Positions 14,523-20,650 of a stretch of 64,000 nucleotides of DNA are shown here, one piece after another (the first letter of the stretch is position 1; the number at the start of each line of letters is the position of its first letter). The stretch is from a virus (taxonomy: Duplodnaviria > Caudoviricetes). Where the stretch lies: positions 98,951 through 162,950 of IMG/VR virus record IMGVR_UViG_3300031992_000021. One strand, 5' to 3'. The translations under genes were made by a program, and so were the position numbers. The notes beneath the pieces were generated by a model. The model was given only the letters and a program-made list of their open reading frames with translations. It made no database searches and was not told where the DNA came from.

Positions 14523-15191
14523 TCATATCTCCGGGAAGTCTGAGAGGTACTGCTTGTCACGGATCCAGTCCGGATACTCAAGGCTTTTCTTGACCTGTAT
14601 GAAGTAGCTCCTGTCGGTTGAGTAGCTTCTGCTGCAGAGCTGGTTGAAATAGTCGGCATGGAACTCGGTGTCGTGCTTCCTAAATTCGCCGAGCCACGCC
14701 TCATATCCATCCCTGAGCAGGATGACGGCATGGGCGCCCCACAGGTTCCCATTTATCCTTCCGAAGCCATCCTTGACGTCGCATAGGGAGTGGTTGTTCT
14801 TGCCATTGTCGTATTCCCTAATGAAGTGCAGATTTCCGAGCGTGATGAGATGAGCGTCATCAGGTATCCCATTCTCTGAAAACAGGGCATCGAGCTTTTC
14901 ATGGCATTGATTCATGGGATAGGCGTCGGACTCGAATATCGTGACGCTCGGCCAATTCATCGCAAAAGCCATGTTCACGATGGAAAAGTGTGACAGTGCG
15001 CATGCGACCATGGGGACACGTTCCGTACTGCACTGCATCAGACCTCTTGGGAAAAGTCCAAAATACTTGCGAGGTAGGTCACTGAATCCGGCGGACCGCA
15101 TGCGAGAACAGAATCTGCCATACTCGAAATCGTCTTTTACGATGACAAACGAGTTCTCCATCATGTTTTCTATCGTGAATTTCATAGTCAA
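14523..15191 (-). CDS. Glycosyltransferase family 25-like protein
   Basis: ACALSH...TIFESDA...WGAHAVIL resembles GT25 GC.LSH / ILEDD / gt.AY motifs. Confidence 0.55.
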   Translation of the reverse strand: MTMKFTIENMMENSFVIVKDDFEYGRFCSRMRSAGFSDLPRKYFGLFPRGLMQCSTERVPMVACALSHFSIVNMAFAMNWPSVTIFESDAYPMNQCHEKLDALFSENGIPDDAHLITLGNLHFIREYDNGKNNHSLCDVKDGFGRINGNLWGAHAVILLRDGYEAWLGEFRKHDTEFHADYFNQLCSRSYSTDRSYFIQVKKSLEYPDWIRDKQYLSDFPEI

Positions 15192-15192
15192 C

Positions 15193-15864
15193 CTACTTCG
15201 TAGTGCACCTCGGGTTCGAGTAGTCGCTGTCGTAGATCACCTCGAAGTCTTCGCTGTCGAAGAACGACTGGGCAAGGTACTTCTTGCTCTTGATCTTGAT
15301 CATCCCGTTCCAGAGGGATGCAGTCTCAAGAGGAATGTCGAGATCCGGGTAGCACTTGCGGACAAGCTCATGGCAGTAGACCGGCTCCGAATGCTTTGCC
15401 GACGTCTCCTCCACCTCGAAATCGTAGTCGTACTTGTTTCCGAGATACGCATGGGCTATCGACGAGGCCTTCCTCGTAAGAGCGTCCATGTCCCTTCCGT
15501 CCTTCTCCACGGGACGCAGGATGGCGAACCCGTCGCACCTCAGGAAGTCGAGAATGTCGATCTTCTGGACTCCTCCGCTCATGGCGTGGATGATGATTCC
15601 GCATCCGATGTATATCCCGGAATGCGAAAACCTTCCAGGAATGAAGTAGCCGTCAAGGTAGTTGCGGTATCGCCTCACGAACACGTCGCCTCTCTTGGCG
15701 AAACTCATGGCCTTCCTTATGCTTGAGGCCTTGACGTCATACCCATGTGGGTCGTATACGATGAACATCGGCCAACGATACACCTTGATCTTGCCAAAAA
15801 CGTTAAGGAAGGCTATCCTTAGGCTCTTGACAAGTCCAAAAAAGATATTTGACAAAACGTTCAT
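15193..15864 (-). CDS. Permuted papain-like NlpC/P60 (YiiX/YebB-like) amidase
   Basis: KRGDVF...FSHSGIY..IIHA...YLGNKYDYDF...YCHELV with His before Cys; ATG 7 nt after TATAAT. Confidence 0.85.
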   Translation of the reverse strand: MNVLSNIFFGLVKSLRIAFLNVFGKIKVYRWPMFIVYDPHGYDVKASSIRKAMSFAKRGDVFVRRYRNYLDGYFIPGRFSHSGIYIGCGIIIHAMSGGVQKIDILDFLRCDGFAILRPVEKDGRDMDALTRKASSIAHAYLGNKYDYDFEVEETSAKHSEPVYCHELVRKCYPDLDIPLETASLWNGMIKIKSKKYLAQSFFDSEDFEVIYDSDYSNPRCTTK

Positions 15865-15871
15865 GCATAAA

Positions 15872-15880
15872 ATTATACCA
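15872..15880 (-). promoter_or_regulatory. Extended -10 promoter TGGTATAAT
   Basis: Minus strand tttggtataat tttatgc ATG. Confidence 0.6.
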
Positions 15881-15916
15881 AATTGGGTGCCATGGAAGAA
15901 GACTTCTGGTGAAAAA

Positions 15917-15991
15917 TGGATGAGGAGGTGTGAGTCGAACACACATGGGGCGATTCAAAGCCGCCCGTACTTTCCGTTGTACTACTCCTCA
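15917..15991 (-). tRNA. tRNA-Gln(TTG)
   Basis: Cloverleaf, loop CTTTGAA, U1-A72, encoded CCA. Confidence 0.9.
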
Positions 15992-15995
15992 ATGA

Positions 15996-16069
15996 TGGTC
16001 GGAGATGAGTGAGTCGAACACTCGCCTTCTGGGCCCAAGCCAGGCGTGCTGCCGTTATACCAATCTCCG
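15996..16069 (-). tRNA. tRNA-Pro(TGG)
   Basis: Loop CTTGGGC, CGG acceptor, CCA. Confidence 0.9.
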
Positions 16070-16070
16070 A

Positions 16071-16146
16071 TGGAGCTGAGTAATGGAGTCGAACCATCAA
16101 CCTGCTGCTTACAAGGCAGCCGCACTGCCTATTGTGCTAACTCAGC
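16071..16146 (-). tRNA. tRNA-Thr(TGT)
   Basis: Loop CTTGTAA, CCA. Confidence 0.92.
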
Positions 16147-16147
16147 A

Positions 16148-16223
16148 TGGTACTCCGAGAGGGGATCGAACCCTCAACCCGCAGATTAAGAATCTGCTGC
16201 TCTACCAGTTGAGCTACCGGAGC
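16148..16223 (-). tRNA. tRNA-Lys(CTT)
   Basis: Loop TTCTTAA, CCA. Confidence 0.92.
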
Positions 16224-16230
16224 ACTTAAA

Positions 16231-16305
<75 letters not shown>

Positions 16306-16308
16306 AAA

Positions 16309-16387
16309 TGGTTGCGGAGGCAGGGATTCGGACCCGCGTGGACCTGCTTATGAGACAGGCGCTGGAACCACTCCAGTCCACTCCGCA
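16309..16387 (-). tRNA. tRNA-Met(CAT), initiator-like acceptor
   Basis: Loop CTCATAA; acceptor TGCGGAG/CTCCGCA-ACCA; lacks GGG/CCC in anticodon stem. Confidence 0.82.
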
Positions 16388-16412
16388 ATGACTTGACTAA
16401 GTATACCATAAA

Positions 16413-16487
16413 TGGCTGGGGAAGTGTGAATCGAACACACATACTCCGGGTCAGAGCCGGATGCACTTGCCGTTGTGCTATTCCCCA
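16413..16487 (-). tRNA. tRNA-Gln(CTG)
   Basis: Loop CTCTGAC, U1-A72, CCA. Confidence 0.9.
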
Positions 16488-16488
16488 A

Positions 16489-16563
16489 TGGAGCATCCAG
16501 CGGGAATCGAACCCGCATCATCTGCTTGGAAGGCAGAGACCCTGGCCATTGGATGATGGATGC
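16489..16563 (-). tRNA. tRNA-Gly(TCC)
   Basis: Loop CTTCCAA, U73, CCA. Confidence 0.9.
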
Positions 16564-16576
16564 ACAAATGCTAAAA

Positions 16577-16653
16577 TGGTTGTCGCGGCAGGACTCGGAC
16601 CTGCGTATGCCGGTGTATCAGACCGGTGCGTTAACCAACTTCGCCACGCGACA
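16577..16653 (-). tRNA. tRNA-Ile(GAT)
   Basis: Loop CTGATAC, T-loop variant TCCGAGT, CCA. Confidence 0.85.
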
Positions 16654-16659
16654 ATTGAA

Positions 16660-16736
16660 TGGAGATCGAGGTGGGAATCGAACCCACATTTTCGGTTTTG
16701 CAGACCGCCGCCCATTCCAATATTGACAACTCGACC
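16660..16736 (-). tRNA. tRNA-Cys(GCA)
   Basis: Loop CTGCAAA, U73, CCA. Confidence 0.85.
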
Positions 16737-16748
16737 TATAATTACAGA

Positions 16749-16830
16749 TGGTGCGCGATGAGGGACTTGAACCCCCACGCCGAAGCGTCTGGACCTAAAC
16801 CAGATGTGTCTGCCGTTTCACCAATCGCGC
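16749..16830 (-). tRNA. tRNA-Leu(TAG)
   Basis: Loop TTTAGGT, long variable arm, CCA. Confidence 0.9.
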
Positions 16831-16837
16831 ATTTCAA

Positions 16838-16911
16838 TGGCAGGAGTTCCTTGAGTCGAACAAGGCTCATCGCTTTTGGAGAGCGAGGCACGGCCGATAT
16901 ACCAAACTCCT
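16838..16911 (-). tRNA. tRNA-Trp(CCA)
   Basis: Loop CTCCAAA, A1-U72, G73, CCA. Confidence 0.88.
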
Positions 16912-16912
16912 A

Positions 16913-16990
16913 TGGTGGGCGATACAGGAGTCGAACCTGTAGAGACCTGCTGTCTGAGAGCAGTATGACTGCCAGTTGCATCAATCGCCC
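16913..16990 (-). tRNA. tRNA-Leu(CAG) with short variable region
   Basis: Loop CTCAGAC, A73, 6-nt variable region, CCA. Confidence 0.8.
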
Positions 16991-16996
16991 GTCAAA

Positions 16997-17079
16997 TGGT
17001 CGCCACAGAGGGACTCGAACCCCCATGCACAAGGCCGGCGGGTTTGAGCCGCCTACGTCTGCCGTTCCGTCATGTGGCG
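16997..17079 (-). tRNA. tRNA-Leu(CAA)
   Basis: Loop CTCAAAC, long variable arm, CCA. Confidence 0.88.
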
Positions 17080-17080
17080 T

Positions 17081-17164
17081 TGGTGCCGAGTGAGGGACTC
17101 CAACCCCCAAGCGCTAGGCGTCGAGGCTTAAACTCGATGTGTATGGCAGTTTCACCAACTCGGC
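17081..17164 (-). tRNA. tRNA-Leu(TAA)
   Basis: Loop TTTAAGC, long variable arm, T-loop TTGGAGT, CCA. Confidence 0.85.
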
Positions 17165-17168
17165 AAAA

Positions 17169-17243
17169 TGGCGGGGTATAGCGGAGTCGAACCGCTCCAA
17201 GGAGATCGACAATCTCCCGTACTAACCGATATACGAATACCCC
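17169..17243 (-). tRNA. tRNA-Asp(GTC)
   Basis: Loop TTGTCGA, G73, CCA. Confidence 0.88.
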
Positions 17244-17251
17244 AATGAATA

Positions 17252-17346
17252 TGGCGGAGAAGCCGCGACTCGAACGCGGACGTGACCTTGCGACCACTAC
17301 TGGCTGTTTAGCAAACAGCTGCCTTGCCAATTAGGCTTACTTCTCC
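17252..17346 (-). tRNA. tRNA-Ser(GCT)
   Basis: Loop TTGCTAA, long variable arm, G73, CCA. Confidence 0.88.
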
Positions 17347-17347
17347 A

Positions 17348-17440
17348 TGGCGGCAGGAGGGGATCTCGAAACCCCACAGGGCTCATCACCCTTACTCGCG
17401 GTGTTCAGGGCCGCTACCTTGCCTTTAGGTTTATCCTGCC
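17348..17440 (-). tRNA. tRNA-Ser(TGA), C33
   Basis: Loop CCTGAAC, long variable arm, G73, CCA. Confidence 0.8.
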
Positions 17441-17444
17441 AGAA

Positions 17445-17538
17445 TGGCGGAGGTGGAGGATCACGATACCCCACACGGCCTTGCGACCGCTACTGGACGG
17501 CTTCCGACCGTCTGCCTTGCCTTTAGGCTTACACCTCC
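17445..17538 (-). tRNA. tRNA-Ser(GGA), C33 and divergent T-loop
   Basis: Loop TCGGAAG, long variable arm, G73, CCA. Confidence 0.78.
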
Positions 17539-17542
17539 AAAA

Positions 17543-17636
17543 TGGCGGAGAGGGGGAGTCTTGAAATCCCACGGGGCCTTGCGACCCGTACTGGATGCTT
17601 TCGAGGCATCTTCCTTGCCTTTAGGATTACCTCTCC
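17543..17636 (-). tRNA. tRNA-Ser(CGA)
   Basis: Loop CTCGAAA, long variable arm, G73, CCA. Confidence 0.82.
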
Positions 17637-17640
17637 AAAA

Positions 17641-17724
17641 TGGTGGGACTGAGAGGACTCGAACCTCCACGCCGAAGCACTACCACCTCAAGGTAGCGTG
17701 TACTGCCAATTTCACCACAGTCCC
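17641..17724 (-). tRNA. tRNA-Leu(GAG)
   Basis: Loop TTGAGGT, long variable arm, CCA. Confidence 0.88.
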
Positions 17725-17737
17725 GTTAAATCGAATA

Positions 17738-17814
17738 TGGCAGCTCCTGGGGGACTCGAACCCCGCATTTCCTGGCTGAGAACCAGGCGTACTGACCGAT
17801 TATACGAAGGAGCC
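17738..17814 (-). tRNA. tRNA-Glu(CTC)
   Basis: Loop TTCTCAG, CCA. Confidence 0.88.
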
Positions 17815-17817
17815 ACT

Positions 17818-17895
17818 TGGTAGCGGCAGCGGGGATCGAACCCGCAGATTCCTCCTTGAAAGGGAGGTGGCTCTAACCGGTTTGCCTATGCCGCC
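17818..17895 (-). tRNA. tRNA-Glu(TTC)
   Basis: Loop CTTTCAA, CCA. Confidence 0.88.
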
Positions 17896-17903
17896 ACTTA
17901 AAA

Positions 17904-17989
17904 TGGTCGTGCGTCAGGGTATCGAACCCCGCCTCCCCTAGGGGCCCAGATTTACAGTCTGGTGGCCGTCCTTAGACCTATACCGCACG
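17904..17989 (-). tRNA. tRNA-Tyr(GTA) with C1-G72
   Basis: Loop CTGTAAA, long variable arm, acceptor CGTGCG/CGCACG-A-CCA. Confidence 0.82.
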
Positions 17990-17990
17990 T

Positions 17991-18065
17991 TGGCTCTAGG
18001 GGCCGGAGTCGAACCGGCAACCACCGCATTAACAGTGCGGCGCACTACCATTGTGCTACCCTAGA
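17991..18065 (-). tRNA. tRNA-Asn(GTT), first gene of the array
   Basis: Loop CTGTTAA, U1-A72, G73, CCA. Confidence 0.92.
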
Positions 18066-18082
18066 ATCGAAATCTTCTTCCA

Positions 18083-18095
18083 GTTGTCAAAGAGC
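18083..18095 (-). promoter_or_regulatory. rrn-type boxA antitermination element
   Basis: Minus strand GCTCTTTGACAAC about 18 nt before tRNA-Asn; matches the rRNA-leader boxA consensus (GCTCTTTAACA). Confidence 0.7.
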
Positions 18096-18120
18096 GAAGT
18101 GGTTCTTTTGCATGTGCCAC

Positions 18121-18161
18121 AAAAACATTCAGGCGACCCTGCTTTTTCTCGCGGGGCCGCC
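18121..18161 (-). terminator. Attenuator terminator hairpin of the tRNA-array leader
   Basis: GGCGGCCCCGC-gagaaaaa-GCAGGGTCGCC followed by tgaatgttttt. Confidence 0.6.
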
Positions 18162-18192
18162 TTCCTTCTCTTCCTGTCAGATCGATTATGCT

Positions 18193-18333
18193 TCAGCAAT
18201 CCAAGCCTGACACCGGCAGCCCCGCTTTCTGGCTAATATCTTCACAATAGCCAGATCCAAGCCACTCGTTTGAGAGCGACTTGGCTTGCAACAGATTCTG
18301 CTGCTTTGCGACTATGGATGTGCTAACGAACAT
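18193..18333 (-). CDS. Putative 46-aa leader peptide of the tRNA array
   Basis: MFVSTSIVAKQQNLLQAKSLSNEWLGSGYCEDISQKAGLPVSGLDC*; lies between promoter and terminator; codons 37-40 are complementary to the terminator 5' arm. Confidence 0.65.
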   Translation of the reverse strand: MFVSTSIVAKQQNLLQAKSLSNEWLGSGYCEDISQKAGLPVSGLDC

Positions 18334-18356
18334 TTCTTATCTCACTGACACCGCAT

Positions 18357-18386
18357 AGTATATCAAAAACCGGATGTGCGTGTCAA
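18357..18386 (-). promoter_or_regulatory. Sigma70-type promoter TTGACA-N18-TATACT (extended -10) for the tRNA array
   Basis: Minus strand ttgaca cgcacatccggtttttga tatact. Confidence 0.8.
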
Positions 18387-18411
18387 TGGCCATGATCGGA
18401 GTATAGTCCTT

Positions 18412-18642
18412 TCAGAAGAATACAAGGTAAAAAGGCCACAGAAGGATGAACTTGAGCTTCTCCCTAAAGCCCATCGGAGGCAGCGAAACGCCGTGAACCC
18501 GAGCCCTTCTCCTGCACTCGATGTCATGCGCTTCGCAGACGATCCACATAAGGGAAGCGCCTGCGAGGTATATGAACATGAGGAATATGGCAATGTTTTT
18601 CACGGAAAATATTATATCAGATTGGAAGGCAAAATCACACAT
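18412..18642 (-). CDS. Small membrane protein
   Basis: Hydrophobic helix and C-terminal LLWPFYLVFF. Confidence 0.5.
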   Translation of the reverse strand: MCDFAFQSDIIFSVKNIAIFLMFIYLAGASLMWIVCEAHDIECRRRARVHGVSLPPMGFREKLKFILLWPFYLVFF

Positions 18643-18643
18643 G

Positions 18644-18895
18644 TCACTCCAGTTTGATGTATTTATACGGTATTTTCCCCCATACGCAGATCTCGTCAAG
18701 CTCTGGCTGCCAAGTTGTTATCCTGACGTCCTGGTAATCCCTTCTAAATGCGTCTATGTCCACCGATACGAGCGCAAGATCCCTCCACCAGCTGTACCTT
18801 CCCTCGCTAAGGCACACGAAGTTGTACCTTGGAACAAGCCCATTCTCCATTATCGACGCAAGGTTCTCTCGAGGAGTCCTATGGTATAGAGTCAC
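18644..18895 (-). CDS. Small ADP-ribosyltransferase/KptA(Tpt1)-fold protein
   Basis: LYHRT..NLASIMENGLVP...VCLS...E...IP matches the LYHGT..I...GL.P..V.LS pattern of the NAD-binding ART lobe. Confidence 0.5.
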   Translation of the reverse strand: MTLYHRTPRENLASIMENGLVPRYNFVCLSEGRYSWWRDLALVSVDIDAFRRDYQDVRITTWQPELDEICVWGKIPYKYIKLE

Positions 18896-20650
18896 TTAGA
18901 CCTCCTTTGGATCGAGCCTGTCGTCGATCGGCGCCTCGTCGTTGGTAAGGCCTCCGCCGAACGCGCTCTCGGGAATCATGTCGTCCACGGACAGACCGAG
19001 AAGCTTCATGGCCACCATGCTCGCAAAGCAGAGCGCATGGCAGAAGTCGTCCGGATGCGACGCGTTCCTCAGATACAGCCTGTGCGTCATGCCGCCGACC
19101 TCGGTCGTTGTCTCGTAGGGCGACAGCAGGTCGTCGGTGTAGATGTCGAACCCGTCCTTCGGGAAGAAGATCCTTCCGTTCCTGATAGCTAAAAAAAGGG
19201 TGTCCAACGCCATGACCTTGTCGATGGTCCAGCACTGCACGACGTTCGTCCTGCCTCTGGACTGGTTCTTTCCGAAGAGCTTCAGCTGCCTAGTGTACTG
19301 CATCTGTACGATCGGGAGCCCGAACCGCTTTGCCAGTATCTGGTTCTTGTCGAGACCCATGCCGGCGTCGGCAGCAACGGCGACGACGTTGTAGAACCGG
19401 CATATCTTGGCGATGTCGGTCATCTGCTCGTCCGGATCGTACCCGCGGTATCTCCTGGCCCACAGCGTGTCTATGCGGCCGTTCGGACGTATTCCTATGA
19501 CAGTTATGACCGTGAACGAGCTAAGTTCTGCCCCACCCCAGTCGATGCCGGCAACGATGAAGCTGTAGCGTCCGGGATTGGTCTTGACCTCCTCCTGAAG
19601 GCGCTTGGTAGACGGAAGCACGCTCTGCTGCTTGATGTGGTGCCTCGTGAGCAGCCTCTGACCGACTGAGTAGGATATTCCGAGGTTTTCCTGGATGAAC
19701 GTGGCGAGAGTCCCTGTCGTGAGCTTCCTGAGGAGCTTCTGCCAGTTGTTCATGTCGTCCACGATCGCAGGACAGACAACCTGGGGGATGTGGTATCCCC
19801 TGAAGCTGTACATCCTGTCCTCGTAGCCTCCTACCCACTGCCCGTTCCTGACGTTTATGCGCTTTCCGCAGTGAAGGCAGTGGAGACCGTCGGCGCCGAT
19901 CATCTTGAGGACGCCTCCGTCGAGGTTCGGTATGGCCCACGTTCCGCACCCCTCGCACTTCATGACCCACTCGCACATTGAGCTCTTCTGCCACAGGGTC
20001 TCGATGTAGTTTTCGGTAACTTTGGCCGTTCCGGTGAACCTGCGGCATCCGTACTTGGACGATGTGAGCGATTCGGAGATGATGGGGACCGTCTCGTCCG
20101 TCTGGTCCTGGATCTCGTCGAAGTCGATCATGTCCGCCATGATACCGCGGGCGCGGTCGGCCGAAGTCTTGGCGTAGGTGAGCTGTATGCCGGCGCCGTT
20201 TGCGAACGTCTGGTGCCCAGTGGCACTTATGATCTTCGCATCGGACAGGACGCCGGCCATGCTCTTGGACTGGAGCTTCTGCGCCAAGGGGCAAGACCGA
20301 ATGGCCTCAGTCAGGTAAAGGTCGCTGTAGCGGCGCGTCTGTTCCTGCAGCGGAGCTACGTACAGCAGCTGGAACTGCGGGATGCAGAGCGGTATGAACA
20401 CCTCGCTCCTCGACAGGGTCATCGACTTGCCAAGCTGACGGCCAGACATTATGATGAGGTCGGGATAGAGCTTCTTCTCGAAAAGTACGTCGAACTGCGG
20501 CCTGTCCTTCAGGCTGAAAGGCTCACCCTTCACCCTGAACAGGTGCGGCAGGAGCGCGGCGTTGTTCGTGGCGTTTATCTGGGCCGCTATCTCGCTGTTC
20601 TTGACGAGCGACGGAACCTTCTTGATGATCTCTCGGTCTATCGACGCCAT
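18896..20650 (-). CDS. terL: Terminase large subunit (GpA-like)
   Basis: Walker A GRQLGKS, YVAP, RARG...DFDEIQD Walker B, CxxC..CxxC zinc insert, nuclease AGIDWGG..ADAG..DDFCHA. Confidence 0.9.
   Translation of the reverse strand: MASIDREIIKKVPSLVKNSEIAAQINATNNAALLPHLFRVKGEPFSLKDRPQFDVLFEKKLYPDLIIMSGRQLGKSMTLSRSEVFIPLCIPQFQLLYVAPLQEQTRRYSDLYLTEAIRSCPLAQKLQSKSMAGVLSDAKIISATGHQTFANGAGIQLTYAKTSADRARGIMADMIDFDEIQDQTDETVPIISESLTSSKYGCRRFTGTAKVTENYIETLWQKSSMCEWVMKCEGCGTWAIPNLDGGVLKMIGADGLHCLHCGKRINVRNGQWVGGYEDRMYSFRGYHIPQVVCPAIVDDMNNWQKLLRKLTTGTLATFIQENLGISYSVGQRLLTRHHIKQQSVLPSTKRLQEEVKTNPGRYSFIVAGIDWGGAELSSFTVITVIGIRPNGRIDTLWARRYRGYDPDEQMTDIAKICRFYNVVAVAADAGMGLDKNQILAKRFGLPIVQMQYTRQLKLFGKNQSRGRTNVVQCWTIDKVMALDTLFLAIRNGRIFFPKDGFDIYTDDLLSPYETTTEVGGMTHRLYLRNASHPDDFCHALCFASMVAMKLLGLSVDDMIPESAFGGGLTNDEAPIDDRLDPKEV

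Follow-up and report, generated by a model that had tools for sequence, protein, structure and literature searches.

A probable leader-peptide transcription attenuator followed by an rrn-type boxA in the control region of a phage 25-tRNA operon

Results

Organization of the tRNA operon and its control region

The window, the whole 64,000-nt stretch of DNA analysed here, makes up the final 64 kb of an IMG/VR record of an uncultured phage, 162,950 bp in length and ~92% complete. Its GC content is ~56%, the minus strand carries most of the genes and the phage terminase is only 29% identical to the terminases of cultured phages. An array of 25 tRNA genes is located on the minus strand (18065-15917), of which 20 are detected by ARAGORN under default settings and the full 25 once the threshold is relaxed, the anticodons obtained with the relaxed threshold agreeing with a reading by eye. 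The array contains Asn, Tyr, Glu (two), Leu (five), Ser (four), Asp, Trp, Cys, Ile, Gly, Gln (two), CAT, Ala, Lys, Thr and Pro tRNAs and is without Arg, His, Phe and Val tRNAs, tRNA-Arg(CCT) and tRNA-Met being present elsewhere in the genome. Three tRNA-Ser genes (CGA, GGA and TGA; 17347-17640, minus strand) are arranged as tandem units of ~98 nt that are ~70-75% identical, a tandem which is missed by default ARAGORN and by Rfam. An Rfam cmscan of 15000-19500, with E values up to 1, returned only tRNAs and chance matches, with no T-box or other family in the leader.

The original prediction placed a promoter, a 46-codon ORF, a hairpin followed by a U-tract and a boxA in front of 25 tRNAs on the minus strand, and all of these elements were located. 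The promoter (18386-18357) consists of a TTGACA -35 hexamer (18386-18381), invariant in the 7 of 7 aligned relatives that reach this position, separated by an 18-nt spacer from an extended -10 element, TGa-TATACT (TGn-TATACT; 18365-18357), in which the TG is present. It matches at 11 of 12 positions and is the top site in a 4-kb promoter scan. From the promoter spacing, the transcript probably starts near 18352-18350. The leader ORF (18333-18193, minus strand) is situated between the promoter and the tRNA genes, beginning ~18 nt after the predicted transcript start, and comprises 46 codons from the ATG at 18333 to the TGA at 18195-18193. Its Shine-Dalgarno sequence is weak, consisting only of GAG 7 nt upstream, while AGGA is carried by half of the gene starts in this phage (50% of upstream windows vs 16% background). 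Translation of the leader ORF is predicted.

Further downstream, 25 nt past the U-run of the hairpin, a boxA-like sequence, GCTCTTTGACAA (18095-18084, minus strand), occurs on the transcribed strand ahead of the untranslated RNA genes and is the single occurrence in the 163-kb genome. It matches the E. coli rrn boxA consensus, GCTCTTTAACAA, at 11 of 12 positions. Nus factors are predicted to bind at this site. A perfect -35 hexamer, TTGACA (18085-18090), is embedded in the G variant of boxA and could mislead promoter scans near tRNA arrays; this hexamer was considered as a second promoter and rejected, as no -10 element is present at 16-18 nt.

The promoter, leader and 25 tRNAs form a module of ~2.5 kb (window 15868-18411), with a gene for a small membrane protein on one side and a 222-aa gene on the other. 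In a relative whose terminase is 74% identical and which carries no tRNAs (L003), both flanking genes are found only 17 nt apart (L003 9087-9104), and thus the whole promoter-to-tRNA module behaves as an insertion. As the genes upstream of the promoter differ in other relatives, the module site is an insertion/deletion hot spot. No tRNAs are present at the module site in the relatives found through their terminases (L001-L005, 53-74% identity), and short DNA matches in these relatives are chance matches located inside genes.

Codon content of the leader

Recounting of the leader codons gave the 37 distinct codons in 46 that had been reported previously, representing 18 amino acids. Under uniform codon use 32.5 ± 2.2 distinct codons are expected (P = 0.036), and 46-codon windows of the phage's own genes contain 27.3 ± 2.9. 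A cognate or wobble codon for every tRNA in the array had also been claimed and is indeed present for 25 of 25, a coverage for which P is ~1e-4 with uniform codons as the null and 1.5e-4 with windows of the phage's own genes. Considered in the opposite direction, 36 of 45 leader codons are served by the array, compared with 61% expected (P = 0.005). The suggestion that amino acids absent from the leader mirror the missing tRNAs held only in part. Arg and His are absent from both leader and array, but Phe and Val codons occur in the leader with no corresponding tRNA in the array, and for Arg the relatives' leaders do contain this amino acid while tRNA-Arg(CCT) is encoded elsewhere in the genome.

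Alternative structures in the leader transcript

The terminator hairpin (18162-18131, minus strand) contains 11 pairs and one C.A mismatch with a folding energy of -22 kcal/mol, and is composed of region 3 (18161-18151), the loop GAGAAAAA (18150-18143) and region 4 (18142-18132), with a U5 run (18125-18121) located 5 nt (GAAUG) past the stem. Region 2, the 5' strand of the antiterminator (GCGGGGCUGCC, 18225-18215), lies in leader codons 37-40 and is a near-duplicate of region 4, both being able to pair with region 3. Regions 2 and 3 pair over 11 bp, including one G-U, and an inner hairpin (18212-18175), in which UGUCAGG (18212-18206) pairs with UCUGACA (18181-18175) and which includes the stop codon, stacks beneath this pairing and extends the helix. 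Folding bears out the proposed antiterminator, its inner helix and its exclusion of the terminator, as both helices share 18161-18151. By our estimate, the chance expectation of an 11-bp complementarity to the terminator arm within 200 nt is ~0.004. CUGACA (18180-18175) has two possible partners, the inner UGUCAG (18212-18207) and a second copy at the 5' end of the transcript (18350-18345), an arrangement that provides a long-range alternative pairing that stabilizes the terminator fold when no ribosome is present.

Transcription is predicted to terminate at the 18162-18131 hairpin. This hairpin was nevertheless absent from the terminator-scan calls, despite its stability, because the U5 run lies 5 nt after the stem, an offset which would weaken a canonical intrinsic terminator. 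When pairing was forced in eight leaders of the lineage described below, seven of them showed a gap of 1-4 kcal/mol between the antiterminator and terminator conformers. The unconstrained minimum fold switched between the conformers with the choice of 3' end and the RNAalifold consensus chose the antiterminator. The leader is unusually stable as a whole (folding z = -6.45). Fold analysis also indicated three hairpins inside the leader ORF on the minus strand, H1 (18304-18288), H2 (18284-18257) and H3 (18255-18228), which are possibly pause or timing elements.

The dependence of folding on ribosome position was modelled by masking a 30-nt ribosome footprint and comparing the forced conformers at equilibrium. 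With no ribosome on the transcript, the terminator is favoured by 4.6 kcal/mol. A ribosome with its A site at codons 2, 5 or 11 shifts the balance to the antiterminator by 2-3.5 kcal/mol, codon 8 being about even, whereas at codons 14-32 the terminator is favoured by 3-8 kcal/mol. The antiterminator is impossible with the A site at codons 35-45, and the terminator is favoured by 2 kcal/mol with the ribosome at the stop codon. Region 2 is positioned at -30 to -20 nt relative to the stop codon, being masked by a ribosome at A-site codons 35-45 and exposed by one at the stop, so that a terminating ribosome would leave region 2 uncovered. Thus, the equilibrium folds back a switch only for early stalls, within the first ~11 codons, and the model needs kinetic, co-transcriptional folding. 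For later stalls, it is plausible that the local antiterminator domain would form ahead of the long-range alternative.

Relatives of the leader

The 46-aa leader product has six relatives in the protein collection, with 72-96% identity, and no homologues were found in this collection beyond the lineage. These relatives of the leader ORF had already been predicted by gene callers in public assemblies. A DNA search with the window leader among cultured phages gave no match, and matches in IMG/VR to a 17-mer of the terminator arm were rejected as chance. A lineage set of nine leaders was assembled from the contigs of the protein relatives and one metagenome match (L060, a close relative). Homology within the lineage begins right at the promoter (~18390-18394, just upstream of the -35 hexamer), with upstream genes varying between contigs. 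The leader is 91-94% identical between relatives, compared with 81-88% for the flanking genes.

In all nine leaders the 46-codon frame is open, the 43 variant alleles including no indel and no stop codon, although the probability of an open frame by chance among these alleles is ~0.08. Indels are found in the promoter spacer, 5' UTR and terminator loop of the lineage leaders but not in the ORF. Substitutions in the ORF are 12 synonymous vs 31 non-synonymous and are distributed evenly over codon positions, indicating that the leader peptide itself is not under selection. This neutral pattern fits what would be expected of a leader peptide and, equally, of a non-coding RNA.

Pairing is largely maintained across the lineage. 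The region 2-region 3 helix is 96% paired across the nine leaders and the inner hairpin 98-100%, while the terminator hairpin is 89% paired with no covariation. In H1-H3, 87-95% of cells are paired, with one compensatory change, in H1. In one relative (L291), a G to U change in region 2 is accompanied by a C to A change in region 3, by which the antiterminator pair is kept and the terminator pair is broken; this compensatory change from G-C to U-A supports the predicted antiterminator helix.

The relatives' leaders cover 20-25 of the tRNAs in the window array, for example 22 of 25 in L051 and 20 of 25 in L291. A reduced array of ~13 tRNAs is present in L046 (659-1934), all of which are covered by its own leader. 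In L051 (1872-2117), loss of boxA and of the first 14 tRNAs coincides with loss of the U-run and of the antiterminator, which has two mismatches. A deletion in this relative fuses the leader to tRNA-Leu(TAG), removing boxA. Array size thus varies within the lineage while the leader persists.

Leaders of other phage tRNA arrays

Two scans of IMG/VR were performed for similar control regions. The first, which required the boxA 12-mer followed by a T-loop, returned 33 loci. In 24 of these the 12-mer immediately precedes a tRNA and often directly follows a sigma-70 promoter, the arrays comprising as many as 34 tRNAs. At three loci a hairpin and U-run touch boxA with a short ORF upstream. The second scan, for a T-run, a degenerate boxA and a T-loop, identified 58 loci having a T-run, boxA and tRNA within 45 nt, which fall into 29 sequence clusters. 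In 24 of the cluster representatives it was possible to assign both a terminator hairpin and a short ORF beginning with ATG, and many of these have recognizable sigma-70 promoters. In most of the 24, the final 2-8 codons of the ORF pair with the terminator 5' arm, and boxA and the first tRNA come next. In many other arrays (L067, L069, L078, L079, L116 and L023) the leader ATG is located 6-7 nt after the -10 hexamer; with this spacing the leader would be a leaderless mRNA for which no Shine-Dalgarno sequence is needed.

Comparison of leaders preceding other phage tRNA arrays had been proposed as a check of the original prediction, and it revealed short ORFs whose codons match their own array. 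A Pro/His/Gln array is preceded by a leader containing QPQPQQHPQ, a Pro/Gln/Arg array by one containing RRPQPQQPRR, an Arg/Leu/Gln array by one containing LRLRQRRQRLLQRSQ (also given as LRLRQRRQRLLQ) and a Trp/Val/His/Ile array by one containing IVHQVIWHVI. For large arrays, with 18-25 distinct anticodons, leaders of 40-42 codons cover 18/18, 24/25 and 23/25. A swap test was carried out in which every leader, represented each time by its best candidate ORF, was compared with each of the 24 arrays; at the amino-acid level, 12 of the 24 leaders scored highest with their own array (Fisher combined P = 8e-5, a value limited by the rank floor). A coverage test over 19 arrays gave a combined P of 3e-9 against uniform codons and 2e-19 against windows of long ORFs from the same locus.

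The codon-matched leaders share with the window the order promoter, short ORF, 2:3/3:4 switch, boxA and first tRNA, as well as a similar distance from the stop codon to the terminator arm, 30 nt in the window and 18-38 nt in the other arrays. Region 2 is located at -30 to -20 nt relative to the stop codon in the window and mostly at -4 to -25 in the others. The window differs in having a longer antiterminator loop with an inner hairpin, an 18-nt 5' UTR where many of the other leaders start at the ATG, a U-run 5 nt off the stem rather than adjoining it and a boxA 25 nt after the U-run, compared with 0-12 nt. Sequence homology with the other leaders is not detectable and the leader peptide of the window shows no significant similarity to theirs, and the resemblance is therefore treated as analogy. 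DNA searches among cultured phages with two of the other leaders (L118 and L077) gave no match. The parts of the trp/his-type layout originally proposed are present in the window, and the layout recurs, with tRNA-matched leader peptides, in many unrelated phage arrays. This recurrence makes the attenuator reading far more credible than a single locus would.

Discussion

The control region of the 25-tRNA operon is probably a leader-peptide, that is ribosome-mediated, transcription attenuator followed by an rrn-type boxA, and the best reading of the signal sensed would be the decoding speed of the array's own codons. In the proposed mechanism, transcription would start at the near-consensus sigma-70 promoter and a ribosome would translate the 46-codon leader. 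When decoding is fast, the ribosome would be on codons 35-46 and the stop codon as regions 3 and 4 are being transcribed. Region 2 would then be masked together with the inner hairpin, the terminator hairpin would form and the transcript would end near 18120. A ribosome held at a slow codon further upstream would leave region 2 free to pair with the terminator 5' arm, and the polymerase would read on. On passing boxA, the polymerase would probably recruit host Nus factors, which would allow it to traverse the 2.2 kb of untranslated tRNA genes. The outcome would be a feedback loop, the whole array being made at a higher rate when any replaceable tRNA is in short supply and being shut down when supply is ample. 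Both the coupling of ribosome to polymerase and the physiological trigger are presumed in this scheme. Weighing against it in the present copy are the weak Shine-Dalgarno sequence, the displaced U-run, the exposure of region 2 by a ribosome at the stop codon, the neutral substitutions in the ORF and the falling codon coverage in relatives.

A more specific role for the leader, as a general tRNA-supply sensor acting as an inducible counter-defence, is advanced only tentatively, its trigger being presumed. If nucleases of the host that cleave anticodons (PrrC-, colicin-, VapC- or PARIS-type), or host shut-off driven by the phage, were to deplete any of the 25 tRNAs, ribosomes would slow on the matching leader codon and the replacement tRNA set would be switched on, the array being switched off again once supply is restored. 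Induction of the array by anticodon nucleases or by uncharged tRNA is purely conjectural, and extra tRNA would not relieve amino-acid starvation.

It is conceivable, but unlikely, that the switch is real and is not read by a ribosome, the leader being a structured non-coding RNA in which a protein, a small RNA, T-box-like binding of a tRNA or the kinetics of folding decides between terminator and antiterminator, with the ORF incidental. Such an RNA would account for the strong structure across the ORF (z = -6.45), the compensatory change in H1, the weak Shine-Dalgarno sequence and the neutral substitutions, and the open frame alone is not significant. It leaves unexplained, however, both the 25/25 codon match (P ~1e-4) and the matched leaders of unrelated arrays, and Rfam, with E up to 1, gives no T-box or other family in the leader.

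We consider it very unlikely that there is no regulated termination, with the array expressed constitutively from the promoter and the purine-rich-loop hairpin serving as a boxB-like or RNase III/processing element of an rrn-style leader. Region 2 near-duplicates region 4 and the two folds are close to isoenergetic, the compensatory change supports the 2:3 helix, the stop-to-hairpin distance matches that of the attenuator class and L051 has lost the antiterminator, U-run and boxA together, all of which argue against constitutive expression. Consistent with a processing element, on the other hand, are the displacement of the U-run from the stem, by which the hairpin is not a canonical terminator, the loop GAGAAAAA, which resembles lambdoid boxB loops, and several other arrays (L017, L019) which consist of a promoter, a small hairpin and boxA with no ORF. 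Finally, it is barely credible that the ORF is a gene for an independently acting small protein which only happens to precede the tRNAs. Although the 46-codon frame is kept in nine leaders and gene callers predicted the ORF in public assemblies, purifying selection is absent (31 non-synonymous vs 12 synonymous, even over codon positions), no homologue was found in the protein collection beyond the lineage and the ORF overlaps the switch helices.

As a putative attenuator, the window element resembles the trpL, hisL and multivalent thr and ilvGMEDA leaders of enterobacteria in having a promoter-proximal short ORF with regulatory codons, mutually exclusive antiterminator and terminator helices and ribosome position as the proposed signal. 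Those leaders control biosynthetic enzymes, whereas the window element would control tRNAs and would sense tRNA rather than amino-acid supply. In contrast to them, the window leader has no run of a single amino acid, sampling 18 amino acids and 37 codons, and its antiterminator strand precedes the stop codon rather than following it, with a boxA behind the terminator. Attenuation of translation-apparatus genes in response to the state of tRNA occurs in pheST of E. coli, through the pheM leader, and in the T-box riboswitches of Gram-positives. Unlike the window leader, pheM responds to a single amino acid and has a synthetase under its control, while T-boxes bind uncharged tRNA directly with no need for a ribosome, and the window is without a T-box motif. 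The rrn leader (boxB-boxA-boxC; NusB/NusE, NusA, NusG and SuhB) and lambda nut provide the likeness of a promoter, a hairpin, a boxA (11/12) and a long untranslated RNA operon; the window copy of boxA differs in being located in a phage, before tRNAs and directly after a putative conditional terminator.

In a full-text literature search, neither leader-peptide attenuation of tRNA genes nor a boxA before phage tRNA arrays was found to have been described, and to our knowledge tRNA genes are held to be controlled at their promoters, through growth rate and the stringent response. A leader that tests the decoding speed of the codons served by the downstream tRNAs would, if the proposal is correct, constitute direct feedback between tRNA supply and tRNA synthesis. 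It would help to explain why phages carry tRNA arrays and how these could be expressed on demand, for example after cleavage or degradation of host tRNA, and it would represent a small, transferable device for sensing the decoding speed of many codons simultaneously. Should the counter-defence role also hold, leader-peptide attenuation of tRNA genes would be a widespread and undescribed layer of phage control, with leaders tailored to each array. As the design recurs in unrelated phages and both the promoter and boxA are near the E. coli consensus, the idea is directly testable with reporters.

Sequences related to the window boxA also occur outside the arrays described above. An exact 17-mer corresponding to an extended boxA, GCTCTTTGACAACTGGA, was found after a promoter in uncultured Bacillota and Clostridiales MAGs, with no rRNA found beside the 17-mer in 10 loci. 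In these MAGs an element present in many copies combines a TTGACG...TAAAAT promoter with GCTCTTTGACAACTGGA and a conserved leader, often at contig ends (L173, L178, L180-L182, L185, L194, L204, L207, L212, L215 and L233), and neither rRNA nor tRNA was found beside it. Among individual phages, no boxA-like 12-mers were found in Arash and D69, while T5 contains two, both in terminal-repeat regions, and KVP40 contains three.
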